The notes under the pieces are model-generated. The model did no database searches, was not told where the DNA came from, and saw nothing but the letters and a program-made list of their open reading frames with translations. 27,207 bases of DNA from a bacterium (GTDB lineage: Bacteria > Bdellovibrionota > FAC87 > UBA2466), in contig JALHPX010000002.1 of assembly GCA_022842225.1 (NCBI GenBank), positions 1 through 27,207 on the forward strand, read 5' to 3'. The translations under genes were made by a program, and so were the position numbers. The stretch's first letter is position 1. Each line of letters begins with the position of its first letter. This document shows, piece by piece, positions 22,902-27,207 of this stretch.

Positions 22902-23999
22902 TTGGCCGAGACCTTCTCCAAGATCCTCATCCTCCGTTTTAGCAGCTTAGGTGACATCATCATGACGACTGCAGCAGTGCGCTGCCTGCGGAAGCGTTTT
23001 CCAAATGCGCAAATTGATATGGCCGTGCGCTCGGATTTTTTGCCGTTGGTGGAGCACAATCCTCATCTCAATCGGATTTGGTCAGTCGATAGGAAGGGCG
23101 GCGCCGCTTCTTTGCGCAAGCTGGTGCGCGATCTTAATGTAGAGAAATACGACGCCGTTTACGATGCGCACGGCAGTTTGCGATCGCGATTGATGCTGCC
23201 GTGGATCCACGCCCGATCCAAGAAACGCTTTAACAAACATTATATTCGTCGAAGCTTGGCGCTTACTTTCAAACTCCCGCTCTTAGACGATCGCAGGTTT
23301 CTGGAAAAGTTTATCGACCCCATTCAGAGCTGGGGTGTGCAGTATGACGGCCTGGGGCCGGAGATTGCACTCGATCCCAAATCGCTAGAGCGCGTCGAGA
23401 TCGCTCTTACGGCATATCCCAAAGGATCGCGCGTGGGATTGATTCCTTCCGCTCAGTGGCCCGGCAAGCGTTGGGCGCCTGAGAAATTTCGCGAGTTGCT
23501 CGGTCGTTTAATCGATAAGACTGACCATTCGTTTTTGATCTTCGGTGGTCCGGAAGATACTTTCTGCCAGCAGATCGCGGAAGATTTTCCCACTCAGCGA
23601 GTGCTCCAACTCCAAGGCAAACTCAATTTGCCCGATGCCATCGCTGCGGTCAGCACCTGCGAATACGTCATCGCGAATGACACAGGCCTGATGCACGTAG
23701 CCGATGCTTTGGGCGTGCCAAGCGTTTTGATTTTCGGCCCCACTTCGGCGGCCCTGGGGTGCTTGCCCTATACGCCGCAATCGGTTCTCGTCGAGAAACA
23801 ACTCTGGTGCCGGCCTTGCTCCAAGAACGGCCAAGCACCTTGCATTCGCGGTAAACGCGTTTGCTTAGAAGACATCACTCCCGAAGACGTGTTTAAGGCC
23901 TCTCAACATCTCGAGCGCCGCTTATTTACCAGCCCGCCGAAGCCGTTATCTTGGGGAATTGATTTGCCCTTCCCGACTCTGGAGCCGTTTCCCGTATGA
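22902..23999 (+). CDS. Glycosyltransferase family 9 (LPS heptosyltransferase, WaaC/WaaF/WaaQ-like)
   Basis: ILILRFSSLGDII, KRWAPEKF, IFGGPED, GKLNL, NDTGLMHVADALGVP...IFGPT, WCRPC. Confidence 0.92.
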   Translation: MAETFSKILILRFSSLGDIIMTTAAVRCLRKRFPNAQIDMAVRSDFLPLVEHNPHLNRIWSVDRKGGAASLRKLVRDLNVEKYDAVYDAHGSLRSRLMLPWIHARSKKRFNKHYIRRSLALTFKLPLLDDRRFLEKFIDPIQSWGVQYDGLGPEIALDPKSLERVEIALTAYPKGSRVGLIPSAQWPGKRWAPEKFRELLGRLIDKTDHSFLIFGGPEDTFCQQIAEDFPTQRVLQLQGKLNLPDAIAAVSTCEYVIANDTGLMHVADALGVPSVLIFGPTSAALGCLPYTPQSVLVEKQLWCRPCSKNGQAPCIRGKRVCLEDITPEDVFKASQHLERRLFTSPPKPLSWGIDLPFPTLEPFPV

Positions 24000-25300
24000 A
24001 GCCGTTTTTTATTTTGTATGCCCTGGGCCTTCGGGTGGCGATTGCGGTTGCTTGGATGCTCTCGTTTTTCAATCCCAAAATACGTCGATTGGTTTCGGCC
24101 AGACGCGGTTTGCAAACACGCCTTTCGCTGTTTCGTGAAGCAGTCCCCGGCAAGTTGTGGTGGTTTCATGTCGCCTCCGCTGGGGAAATGGAGCAAGCCA
24201 TCCCTTTGATGGAGAAAGTCCGCGCGCGCGAGTCCGACTCGGTGATCTTCGTTAGCTTCTTTAGTCCATCGGCAGAAATGGCTGCGGCAAATGAAATCAA
24301 GCGACGCGATGCTACGGGTTTAACCGTGCCCTGGGATTACGCTGATTACCTCTGTTGGGATTTATCGGGGTCAGTGCGCCGCTACGTGGCCCTGCTCAAG
24401 CCTGCCTATTTTGTCTCTTTGCATGCAGAACTTTGGCCTGTGCTTTTTGATCAGCTGGAGAAAGACAACGTAGCCATTTCCATTGGAGCTGTGCACGTGC
24501 CGACTCCCCGTTCGATGTCCTGGAGTAAGCGGACCTATTGGAAGAGCCTACTCGCGCCAGTTACTCGTATTGCGACGATAGATTCGGAGACGTGTGCTTA
24601 TCTGCAAGAAGCCTTCCCGCAGAAGAACATCCAAATGCTGGGCGACCCCCGCATCGATCGGGTGGTCGAACGCGCGAGTCGCAATAACGAGATCCGCAAA
24701 GCGACGAGCGACGATTCGCTCGAGGTTCTCCTAGCCAGCGTCGAGGATACGGATTGGAAAGCGATTAAGGATTGGTTAGCCAAGCCACACGAAACGCGTA
24801 TCAAGCTTTGGATCGTGCCCCATGAGCCTAGAGAAAAAGCCATGGCGCAGATGGAGCAAACCTTAGCCGCGGCAAAACTGCTTACTATTCGGCTCAGTGA
24901 ATTGGGTGGAGTCGTCAGCACCGCCTTTACGGCTAACCCGGAGATTGACGCGGTTATCGTCGATAAAGTGGGCGTCTTGGCTGAACTCTACGCCCGCACG
25001 GAACTCGCATTCGTCGGTGGAAGTTTTGAGACCGCCGTGCATAATGTATTGGAGCCAGCTGCCTATTCGGTTGCCATTGTGACCGGTCCTCAGATCGAAA
25101 AGTCTTGCGAGGCAACTGAGATGCGCAACCAAGGCGCGCTGCTGCAAACCGACTCCAAAGACTCTTTGGCAATTGGCCTGGATGCCTTGATTGCGAATGA
25201 GCGCTACCGTCACGACCTCGGCCAACGCGCCCGGCGTTTCCTCACAGATCGCCAAGGCGCGAGCGAACGCTACGGCACTTGGCTCGGCGAACTGCTGTAG
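23996..25300 (+). CDS. waaA: 3-deoxy-D-manno-octulosonic acid (Kdo) transferase
   Basis: WFHVASAGEMEQAIPL, ELWP, GDPRIDRV, IVPHEP, VDKVGVLAELY...AFVGGSF...HNVLEPA. Confidence 0.9.
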   Translation: MKPFFILYALGLRVAIAVAWMLSFFNPKIRRLVSARRGLQTRLSLFREAVPGKLWWFHVASAGEMEQAIPLMEKVRARESDSVIFVSFFSPSAEMAAANEIKRRDATGLTVPWDYADYLCWDLSGSVRRYVALLKPAYFVSLHAELWPVLFDQLEKDNVAISIGAVHVPTPRSMSWSKRTYWKSLLAPVTRIATIDSETCAYLQEAFPQKNIQMLGDPRIDRVVERASRNNEIRKATSDDSLEVLLASVEDTDWKAIKDWLAKPHETRIKLWIVPHEPREKAMAQMEQTLAAAKLLTIRLSELGGVVSTAFTANPEIDAVIVDKVGVLAELYARTELAFVGGSFETAVHNVLEPAAYSVAIVTGPQIEKSCEATEMRNQGALLQTDSKDSLAIGLDALIANERYRHDLGQRARRFLTDRQGASERYGTWLGELL

Positions 25301-25309
25301 CCACTAGCC

Positions 25310-26872
25310 CTAACGATCGATTAACTCCAAATTATAGAGATTCAGCTCCGGCTTCTGCAGAGCTAAGCCTAAACTAAACGATCCCAGCGCCATTTTCTTG
25401 CGCACGGTTTCCGTGCCGATGTTCAGAGCACGGGCAACTGCGGGTGTGCTCTTGCCCTCCAGAACCCGCATCGCCATCACTTTGCGTACCGCCGAGTCCA
25501 TGAACGCAATCTGCTTGGCAACTTCGGCGCGAGAGGCGGTTACGGGCTCGCGTTTTTGGCGACGACCGCGATTGCCATCGGGCTCAATCAGCATCTCCAC
25601 TAAATAAGATCGTCCCTGCGAGTCTCCTAGAATCGCCTGCACCCGATCGCGAGTGTCGCCGATCAAGCAATAGTAAGGTCGAAGCAAGCTGATATCGGCC
25701 GCCTCCGCCCTCAGGGCCGCGGCTAATTTCACCCGTATGCGATCGATTCTGCCGAGCACTGTGGCAGCTGGAATATTCAGCGCTTCAATTATTTCTGGTC
25801 GCTCTAAGCCGAATCCCCGCAATAGAGCGTACTCGCCCTCCGCTGGGCCCAGCGTGATCTGGAACGTTTTGACAAAGAGCTGTTCCCGGCCCCCATAGAG
25901 CTCGTCGTAGTCGCGCCGACGTTCGTAGATCAAGCGCAGGTAGGTGCGCCGAGCCTCCAAGCTATCGAGGTCCAGACGGCGAACCATAGATTCAAGACTC
26001 TCGCCCTTCACCCAGCCACCGATGATTTGAATCTCGCCCGGCTCAAAGGGAATGGGACCTTCAGCCAATAAAGTTTCTTTCTTGCCGTGGAATGCGCTGA
26101 GAATAAATACACGGTTTTTCGCACTCATGTCGGGCAAGTAAGTGAGGTGGGAGCGGCGAATCGCTGGATTTTGTAACGCCTCCTGGACTTTTGCTTCCAC
26201 ATTCCCAATCGCGTCATGCACATGGCGGATGTCGAGTTGTAGCCTCTGGGCGATCTCGCCATGCGAATCTCCCGTCGATAAACCGCGCAGCACCCCGAGC
26301 TGTCTTGCACTGAGTGGAATGGGAGGCGTACTGAGTTCGGAGTAATCCTCCAGAGAAACAAAAGGCGGTGTGTATAGTTCCACTTGTCCGATATCTAACC
26401 CCTGGTGCAGGGCAAACTGCGGCCCTTGCGAGTCAGCCACCCAGCGCATATCGCCAAACGGCGTTGGATTTCTCTGCTTATGGGCGGCAAAGAGCCGGTG
26501 CTTGGCGATGACATAGACGATGGGCAAGTAGGGCCGCGGGGGCGCGTCCAGTGAGCGCTGCCGACGCACCCATTTGATTACTTCCAGATAAGTATCGTGA
26601 AAGATCTCTTCGGCAGCCTGAGAATCTGCGCCGCGCAGACCAAGATAGCGAAGCAGCTCAAGCTCCATCCAGTGGTAGATGAGCATTTCCGAGGCGCCCT
26701 CTTCGGAAACGGTCGTGGCGTAACGACTCCGCTGCAGGGCCGCTTCTAATTGCTCGCGCGGACCGCCCTGGTCGACGACGAGAACAGAACAAATTGGACG
26801 AATGGGATCGGGAAGAATGATCGCCCCGGCAAGCAACCGAACGGTAAATAGACTGGCTAAAAACGCCGTCAA
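25310..26872 (-). CDS. ECF sigma-70-like protein with one sigma2 and 3-4 sigma4/HTH repeats plus signal-peptide-like N-terminus
   Basis: sigma2-like DSQAAEEIFHDTYLEV...IVYVIAKHRLF; sigma4-like LSARQLGVL...SHGEIAQRL, LERPEIIEALNIPAATVLGRIDRIRVKL, VLEGKSTPAVARALNIGTETVRKK. Start uncertain (CTG 26893, TTG 26872 or ATG 26686). Confidence 0.65.
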   Translation of the reverse strand: MTAFLASLFTVRLLAGAIILPDPIRPICSVLVVDQGGPREQLEAALQRSRYATTVSEEGASEMLIYHWMELELLRYLGLRGADSQAAEEIFHDTYLEVIKWVRRQRSLDAPPRPYLPIVYVIAKHRLFAAHKQRNPTPFGDMRWVADSQGPQFALHQGLDIGQVELYTPPFVSLEDYSELSTPPIPLSARQLGVLRGLSTGDSHGEIAQRLQLDIRHVHDAIGNVEAKVQEALQNPAIRRSHLTYLPDMSAKNRVFILSAFHGKKETLLAEGPIPFEPGEIQIIGGWVKGESLESMVRRLDLDSLEARRTYLRLIYERRRDYDELYGGREQLFVKTFQITLGPAEGEYALLRGFGLERPEIIEALNIPAATVLGRIDRIRVKLAAALRAEAADISLLRPYYCLIGDTRDRVQAILGDSQGRSYLVEMLIEPDGNRGRRQKREPVTASRAEVAKQIAFMDSAVRKVMAMRVLEGKSTPAVARALNIGTETVRKKMALGSFSLGLALQKPELNLYNLELIDR

Positions 26873-27010
26873 AAAAAGAGTGCGTCGCTGCAGAACCTCT
26901 CCCCTAAAACCTGAAGAGCTACTCGTAGCATGCCTCTTGAGGCACGAACAACTACTGAACTGGGTTGGGGTTAGTACGGTGCAATGCGCTATGTCGATAA
27001 TAGGCGGGCG

Positions 27011-27207
27011 CTACAGGTACCAGTAGCCAAGATATCGGAATAATGTGTTTTTCCAGTACTCTTGAAAGACTTTCACGATGGCACCCTCGGAGGGTACGGC
27101 GAACCCGACGATGTCAAAACCAGGCAGGGCGCGGACAAAAACCGCAAGGGCCCGATCCATGTGGTAGTCGCTGGTGACCACTACGACGTGGCGCAATTGC
27201 CGTTCGC
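27011..27207 (-). CDS. YdcF/DUF218 (ElyC/SanA-like) family protein, 5'-truncated
   Basis: VVVVTSDYHMDRAL...AVPS...QEYWK is the DUF218 C-terminal signature; the frame is open to the window edge. Confidence 0.8.
   Translation of the reverse strand, partial: ERQLRHVVVVTSDYHMDRALAVFVRALPGFDIVGFAVPSEGAIVKVFQEYWKNTLFRYLGYWYL

Follow-up and report, generated by a model that had tools for sequence, protein, structure and literature searches.

A sigma factor-like protein with a conserved signal peptide and a probable CTG start codon in an uncultured member of the Bdellovibrio family

The 27,207-nucleotide (nt) stretch of contig JALHPX010000002.1 analyzed here (assembly GCA_022842225.1; the whole stretch is called the window) carries, on its minus strand, a gene for a sigma factor-like protein that begins with a conserved signal peptide. 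Sigma factors and LuxR-type helix-turn-helix (HTH) proteins are textbook cytoplasmic proteins. The precursor would have about 527 amino acids (aa), and its first 24 residues, probably read from a CTG codon at position 26893, form a predicted cleavable type I signal peptide. This peptide would target the chain to the inner-membrane translocon by the Sec or signal recognition particle (SRP) route, with twin-arginine translocation (Tat) possible in the window orthologue, and signal peptidase I (SPase I) would cut after A-G-A. The mature protein would then lie beyond the inner membrane, either periplasmic or farther out. From N- to C-terminus, its parts would be a short Pro/Asp linker with a conserved cysteine, an extracytoplasmic function (ECF)-type sigma2 domain, three LuxR-like HTHs, and a sigma4 domain. 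From its sequence, the protein is probably sent out of the cytoplasm, and we consider export with SPase I cleavage of a CTG-started precursor to be moderately likely.

The CTG reading gives the product (M)QRRTLFLTAFLASLFTVRLLAGA/IILPDP (the slash marks the predicted cut), running on as IILPDPIRPIC (Table 1). Its N-terminus has the features of a type I Sec signal peptide, namely, a basic n-region, an h-region below membrane-span length, and small residues at -3/-1; signal-peptide calls were made by manual rules and with a loose heuristic. In the AlphaFold2 (AF2) model (mean predicted local distance difference test score [pLDDT], 74.6), a lone helix spans residues 2 to 21, residues 18 to 42 are disordered (pLDDT, ~33), and the folded domains follow. 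The cysteines of the protein include Cys35 and Cys409. Processing as a lipoprotein by signal peptidase II was rejected, since there is no lipobox and the first cysteine is residue 35, eleven residues after AGA and in the context R-P-I-C. Over the signal-peptide codons, the ratio of nonsynonymous to synonymous divergence (pN/pS) is 0.35 to 0.9 with hydrophobicity retained, and there is an in-frame 3-nt indel relative to the orthologue L001. The residues of the peptide drift while their hydrophobic character is kept, as expected of signal peptides.

The start codon was placed by comparison with the two closest orthologues, L001 (78 to 79% identity) and L002 (79 to 81% identity). The open reading frame (ORF) caller's version of the gene spans positions 25310 to 26872 of the minus strand and encodes 520 aa from a TTG start. 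As an earlier note on this DNA had observed, the frame stays open upstream of this TTG, which is the first ATG, GTG, or TTG in frame; the 46 further codons include none of these. The note's coordinates for a Shine-Dalgarno (SD)-like AGGGGAG (26905 to 26899) and the in-frame CTG that follows it were also correct. As a reference, GGAG, GAGG, and AGGA cores were located before 518 confident ATG starts of the same genome. These cores peak at -13 to -8, and the GGAG at this gene begins at -9 from the CTG. The SD-CTG pattern goes beyond chance: this GGAG falls in the genome's SD peak, TTG 26872 has no such core, the SD and CTG hold the same place in both orthologues, and all family members found have an n-h-c peptide. 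Both orthologues retain ...AGGGGAGA(G/A)GTTCTG precisely in position, and the next canonical start shifts (TTG at +7 in the window, GTG at +10 in L001, and TTG/ATG at +7/+8 in L002). From the CTG to the canonical starts, only two differences separate the window from L001, a synonymous CTT-to-CTA change and an inserted in-frame TTC codon. Translation from further upstream was rejected, since the frame has no ATG, GTG, or TTG there and, in L001, no start-like codon besides CTG occurs anywhere upstream in frame, near-cognates included.

CTG is also the only start that yields a charged n-region in all three orthologues. The CTG forms all pass the signal-peptide heuristic (3/3). When L001 and L002 are translated from their canonical starts instead, the charged n-region is gone, little of the hydrophobic core is left, and both proteins fail the heuristic. 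The internal ATG at 26686, which had been put forward earlier as an ordinary cytoplasmic start, does exist, but L001 has ACC (T) and L002 has ATT (I) at this codon. Codons 25 to 69, the 45 codons that separate this ATG from the signal peptide, are under purifying selection (pN/pS of 0.15 to 0.25, versus 0.15 to 0.17 in the rest of the gene), and the ATG was rejected as the start. The conserved CTG at 26893 is probably the start codon. Its truncation by gene callers hides the signal peptide from routine annotation.

Table 1. Coordinates and N-termini of the gene, its relatives, and related or neighboring genes. Positions are those of the window unless a contig or locus is named; residues are numbered from CTG 26893; a slash marks the predicted cut.
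Feature	Position	Strand	Remarks
Whole coding sequence from CTG	25310-26893	-	527 codons plus stop at 25310-25312
SD-like AGGGGAG	26899-26905	-	5 nt upstream of CTG 26893; kept in L001 and L002
Proposed start codon CTG	26891-26893	-	Invariant in three orthologues; next codon varies (CAG/CAG/AAG)
TTG, first canonical start and gene callers' choice	26870-26872	-	Alternative start; no SD within 20 nt
Internal ATG	26684-26686	-	GAGG core starting at -15; rejected as start
Signal peptide, 24 codons	26822-26893	-	n-h-c design; predicted SPase I cut after A-G-A, before I25
n-region MQRR (+2)	26882-26893	-	Positively charged
h-region TLFLTAFLASLFTV, 14 aa	26840-26881	-	Best 9-residue Kyte-Doolittle mean, 2.44
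c-region RLLAGA	26822-26839	-	Small residues at -3/-1 (A-G-A)
Pro/Asp-rich linker IILPDPIRPIC...	26762-26821	-	Conserved Cys35 (codon 26789-26791); low pLDDT
ECF-type sigma2-like four-helix domain, residues 45-141	26471-26761	-	
HTH 1, LuxR/GerE type, residues 193-240	26174-26317	-	Pfam GerE at 193-235, 36.5 bits versus 23.5; PDB NarL-type regulators
HTH 2, degenerate, residues 285-323	25925-26041	-	AF2 helices 285-295, 300-307, 311-323
HTH 3, residues 350-400	25694-25846	-	AF2; PDB VraR HTH at 346-389; NCBIfam sigma matches at 367-401
Sigma4-type HTH, residues 455-511	25361-25531	-	Pfam Sigma70_r4_2 at 465-502, 28.1 bits versus 25.7
Relative P0005 (L003)			ATG, two codons after a stop; MRFGGWLAGVFCAFLSVSALGA/HMPSD
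Relative L004			ATG two codons after a stop, upstream of gene caller's start; MRFGAWSAWLLLFFLSGPALA/SSRSPDP
Relative P0007			GTG, nine codons after a stop; ..FKLLPVAALWSLFQASA/GEG
Relative P0008			N-terminus MRFWFSVWLFGLLTLPARG/
Relative P0009, without sigma2			N-terminus MAGRRQVFTAGILSLCLAASAEA/
Relative P0010			N-terminus ..AKRFIERAVFAGLALVWVPGSLFA/C
Second signal-peptide sigma-like protein, 880 aa	C155:3691-6330 = L021:192-2831	-	Begins MRIHAVITTRRRSFARVCIVLATLAACPVFS/TSGVPDEEC
G008 ORF, 693 aa	L023:754-2835 (G008:C19)	-	MKALFYVVFILSAMARASA/PATSLC, then AEDIAQETLLKTF...; signal peptide, Cys, ECF sigma2, HTH array
DUF218 gene, upstream neighbor	27011-27205	-	
Kdo transferase (Glycos_transf_N), convergent downstream neighbor	23996-25300	+	

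Several further features lie around the start. A small upstream ORF in another frame (26869 to 26931, minus strand; ATG 26931; 20 codons) ends in a TGA that overlaps TTG 26872 as TTGA. The equivalent ORF in L001 stops 2 nt short of the GTG, and the one in L002 has a stop that overlaps the CTG. It was rejected as a coupling device, as it has no SD and its stop position differs in L001 and L002; it possibly arose by chance. The ~40 nt upstream of the CTG (26894 to 26935, minus strand) are near-invariant in the L001 and L002 equivalents (GTGCTAC ... TTCAGGTTTYAGGGGAGARGTT). The remaining intergenic region diverges between the orthologues, and 48 nt of it are absent from L001. Synonymous divergence is halved over the first 24 codons (pS of 0.34 to 0.40, versus 0.72 to 0.81). 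Together, the near-invariant block and the low pS suggest that the nucleotide sequence near the start is itself constrained, for example, by a leader or regulatory element. A sigma-70 promoter scan of positions 25200 to 27207 gave no match.

The signal peptide is conserved in the relatives of the window protein. A search of 5.8 billion clusters returned only five other family members, and a HMMER profile run against 1.84 billion representatives gave six matches at an E value of <1e-10. An n-h-c N-terminus was present in all relatives found (8/8), at identities from 78% down to 25%. These N-termini consist of an N-tail with a charge of +1 to +3, an uncharged core of 11 to 17 residues, and small residues at -3/-1, with the cut-site triplets AGA, AGG, LGA, ALA, ASA, ARG, and AEA. 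The 15 residues after the core have a net charge that is 0 or negative in every member. In three relatives (P0005, L004, and P0007), the peptide is encoded from unambiguous ATG or GTG starts. A cysteine lies 1 to 25 residues past the predicted cut in all sigma2-bearing relatives and in the clearly resolved other signal-peptide sigma-like families described below; P0008 has one Cys only. The basic N-tail and the neutral or acidic flank after the core predict an N-in, C-out orientation, and together with cores of 11 to 17 residues, this charge bias marks a cleaved signal peptide rather than a membrane anchor. These findings bear out the proposal in the earlier note of an N-terminal export signal read from the CTG. 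The note had set beforehand, as the result that would count against it, homologues beginning at the methionine equivalent to that of MLIYHW; instead, the N-terminal extension is conserved.

The passenger resembles sigma factors at both ends. In the sigma2 region, NCBIfam PRK12527 matches residues 79 to 111 (E value, 7.9e-7), and a region 2.2-like motif, AEEIFHDTYLE, is present. Pfam Sigma70_r2 scores 15.9 bits on the window protein against a cutoff of 24, and subthreshold matches occur in 5/8 members. When residues 40 to 150 were modeled separately (pLDDT, 89.2), the model superposed on the sigma2 domain of SigC (2o7g_A; root mean square deviation [rmsd], 2.8 Å; template modeling [TM] score, 0.60/0.72), as well as on the sigma2 domains of Rhodobacter sphaeroides SigE and Escherichia coli sigmaE. 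In an ESM Atlas feature search, the sigma-like passenger fell among ECF sigma clusters. The hhalign comparison of this region with the sigma2 region of the C155 family described below was uninformative (probability, 16%). At the other end, in the sigma4 HTH, a family profile matches PDB SigL (E value, 2.3e-6) and also region 4 of SigE and sigmaE, and Foldseek aligned this HTH with sigmaE region 4 (2h27; TMt, 0.76; rmsd, 1.6 Å). The C-terminal end of the protein (25313 to 25360, minus strand) holds the most conserved motif of the family, PELNL(Y/F)NL, which is a predicted beta strand; P0010 carries this motif twice, and similar strands follow other HTH modules.

ECF (group 4) sigma-70 factors such as E. 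coli sigmaE and Mycobacterium tuberculosis SigL and SigC have in common with the window protein a sigma2-like four-helix domain and a sigma4 HTH. The window protein differs from them in its signal peptide and in the three extra LuxR-like HTHs and the beta strands between sigma2 and sigma4. With 527 aa against ~190 for ECF factors and a predicted mature form of 503 aa, it does not follow the compact ECF design of 170 to 220 aa. Its Sigma70_r2 match is below the Pfam cutoff, no anti-sigma gene was found adjoining it, and RNA polymerase binding is putative. The fold and profile matches indicate that the passenger has sigma-like folds without being a standard ECF sigma factor.

The same design recurs in the genome and its relatives. 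Six ORFs of the genome match Sigma70_r2. Five of these, namely, RpoD and four proteins with lengths of 258, 369, 183, and 217 aa, are ordinary sigma factors with a hydrophilic N-terminus, and they serve as an internal control for the hydrophobic N-terminus of the window protein. The 880-aa protein on contig C155 has a full ECF core (Sigma70_r2 above the cutoff; Sigma70_r4_2 E value, 5e-28) followed by ~670 aa of HTH repeats; among its homologues, P0037 to P0040, a hydrophobic core is present in 4/4 and an RRS-x-x-R motif is present in 3/4. P0012 (865 aa) has the same design of signal peptide, Cys, ECF-type sigma2, and HTH array, and the G008 ORF is a further example (Table 1). G008 and G001 represent other genera of the same family. 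In G001 (L029, G001:C56), two adjacent sigma2 ORFs have signal-like hydrophobic N-termini, with candidate starts only. One of the two apparently lacks a canonical start upstream of the hydrophobic segment, as the window gene does. The predicted design of signal peptide, Cys, ECF-type sigma2, and sigma4/HTH array occurs in at least three further Pseudobdellovibrionaceae families. Counted together, at least four sequence-unrelated families join a conserved predicted signal peptide to an ECF-like core and an HTH array, all of them in the family of Bdellovibrio. Elsewhere in the genome, contig C52 (704 to 772, minus strand) encodes a lipoprotein-type signal (..FVLVSGC) with a weak Sigma70_r4_2-like stretch (E value, 0.0014; 23 positions), which may be due to chance.

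The main rival to export is a membrane-tethered pro-sigma factor, in which the hydrophobic N-terminus would hold a cytoplasm-facing protein inactive at the inner membrane until proteolysis. There is precedent in the Bacillus pro-sigmaK and pro-sigmaE and in the pro-sequence of Streptomyces BldN (ECF121), which are likewise sigma-like proteins with an N-terminal extension likely removed by proteolysis. The extension of pro-sigmaK is hydrophobic and membrane associated. Tethering would keep sigma2 and sigma4 where RNA polymerase is and would explain why sigma domains are present at all, and with no adjoining anti-sigma gene, some other form of control would be needed. However, charge bias, core length, and cut sites all speak against the idea: the positive-inside rule gives the opposite topology in every member, and cores of 11 to 17 residues, each ending in an AxA-type site, are too short for a stable span. 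Pro-sigma extensions are not n-h-c peptides with AxA sites and their mature sigma factors stay cytoplasmic, whereas the charge bias and core length of the window family predict translocation. On these grounds, we consider tethering unlikely. In a survey of ECF factors, BldN is recorded as an ECF sigma with an N-terminal pro-sequence, and proteolytically removed extensions are described as known and as easily missed with noncanonical starts; its N-terminal extensions are pro-sequences or inhibitory tails only, with no signal-peptide-like extensions described (PMC7826278).

If the protein is exported, the route is more plausibly Sec or SRP than Tat, which the earlier note had raised as a possibility. 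As a Tat substrate, the already folded sigma-like protein would be routed by QRRTLF through TatABC. The machinery is encoded on contig C103, with a TatC match of 223 bits and two TatA/B genes, and a helical, fast-folding passenger would suit it. In the window motif Q-R-R-T-L-F-L, the twin Arg and the hydrophobic positions are placed as in the Tat consensus S/T-R-R-x-F-L-K, without the preceding S/T and without the K, and the motif leads into a 14-residue uncharged run. R19, a basic c-region residue, is a classic Sec-avoidance feature; L001 shares both the RR and the c-region R, P0009 has GRRQVF, and the sequence-unrelated C155 family keeps RRSFxR in 4/5 members. In the homologues, however, the part of the proposal that stood was the signal peptide and not its twin Arg, which, besides the window protein, only L001 and the distant P0009 retain. 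It is replaced by KRP in the 81% orthologue L002, by a single R in P0005, L004, and P0008, and by a single K in P0007, and it is also lost in P0010 and P0012. The mean hydrophobicity of the h-region is 2.25, versus 1.07 to 1.59 for the genome's canonical Tat-like signals (SRRRFIQ, TRRQFLG, and SRRRFFV). This value resembles those of the genome's plain Sec-type peptides, and examples with an n-region RR are common among them. At 24 aa, the peptide is short for Tat. Because the RR is not conserved and the core is very hydrophobic, Sec or SRP is favored, and we give Tat export a low probability.

Two other readings are weaker than tethering. An uncleaved signal anchor would leave the protein translocated and facing the periplasm but still attached to the inner membrane. 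Hydrophobic residues do continue past R19 (LLAGAIIL) in the window protein alone, making ~23 residues with one Arg, but the orthologues have polar c-regions (SSRAGA, PSSSHAGG, SGPALA, and QASA) and short cores, so that an anchor is very unlikely. An ordinary cytoplasmic regulator started at TTG 26872 or ATG 26686, with the signal-like stretch an untranslated or meaningless leader, would agree with the rarity of CTG starts and with the gene callers' choice of TTG, GTG, or ATG, but it is extremely improbable given that the two closest orthologues lack ATG 26686, purifying selection acts on the codons upstream of it, TTG 26872 has no SD, and distant relatives encode the peptide from unambiguous ATG starts.

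Several points weigh against export. CTG is permitted as a start codon by translation table 11, but it is rare and weak. The TTG 26872 form of the window protein also passes the loose signal-peptide heuristic, and this heuristic passes 34% of the genome's confident ORFs and fails P0007 and P0012. We know of no job for sigma2 and sigma4 domains outside the cytoplasm, and fast-folding helical domains are poor Sec substrates. The genome is an uncultured, 74%-complete metagenome-assembled genome (MAG), and that the organism is a predator is an assumption based on its family. On the other side, possible routes of export are encoded: besides TatC and TatA/B, the genome has the secretin GspD.

Transcription-type proteins that are made in one cell and act in another are known from other systems, among them the transcription activator-like (TAL) effectors of Xanthomonas and phage sigma and anti-sigma proteins; the likeness to the window protein is one of concept alone. 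TAL effectors have a different fold and use type III secretion, and the phage factors are made inside the host. To our knowledge, none of these carries a Sec or Tat signal peptide. A parallel in peptide length and design is found in Bdellovibrio bacteriovorus, in which Sec peptides of 20 to 23 aa (Bd2692, Bd2269, Bd0468, and Bd0120) are enough by themselves to send NanoLuc to the supernatant (PMC12622784). The window peptide, with 24 aa, is of similar build, and the likeness is by length and design; the passengers of those peptides are hydrolases and other envelope-active proteins, whereas that of the window is transcription-factor-like. Literature phrase searches across 8.4 million papers for sigma factors that are secreted, exported, or periplasmic gave no relevant result, and a comparative-genomics paper on Bdellovibrionota does not mention sigma factors or signal peptides (PMC11656739).

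Prey transcription stops ~20 to 25 min after invasion, and a review assigns no factor to this stop (PMC13689555). A prey-directed role for the window protein is conceivable, because GspD is present, a Sec peptide alone exports a reporter in B. bacteriovorus, and the stop in prey transcription has no assigned factor. The signal-peptide sigma-like HTH-array proteins might then be secreted effectors of predators of the Bdellovibrio family, reaching prey DNA or RNA polymerase and shutting down or redirecting transcription. The lineage of the genome, in the family of Bdellovibrio, and the recurrence of the design there fit this idea, which we nevertheless regard as doubtful, with the odds well against it. 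The target is a matter of speculation; candidates are the DNA or RNA polymerase of another cell and periplasmic DNA. Were the effector reading true, it would supply a molecular cause for the stop in prey transcription. If export is real, predators may send transcription-type proteins toward their prey. Such proteins would form a new effector class and offer a way to study prey gene silencing. Alternatively, exported sigma and HTH folds may have an extracytoplasmic job, such as handling DNA in the periplasm.

The only named relative is an uncultured Pseudobdellovibrionaceae MAG, and NCBI taxonomy places Bdellovibrio in that family. Among the 61 relatives searched, only members of that GTDB family carried the window family, namely, the genome's own genus and 3/7 genomes of one other genus. 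The type II secretion system minor pseudopilin PF03934 was not found in this genome, which is 74% complete. Synteny of the flanking genes (Table 1) with the window gene extends to L001 and apparently to L002 and is absent from the relatives with 44 to 53% identity; this limitation to close orthologues indicates that there is no conserved functional partner. No RNA runs were listed as holding the stretch. Four runs hold it, all of them DNA and all from one drinking-water metagenome study, which may be the source of the assembly.

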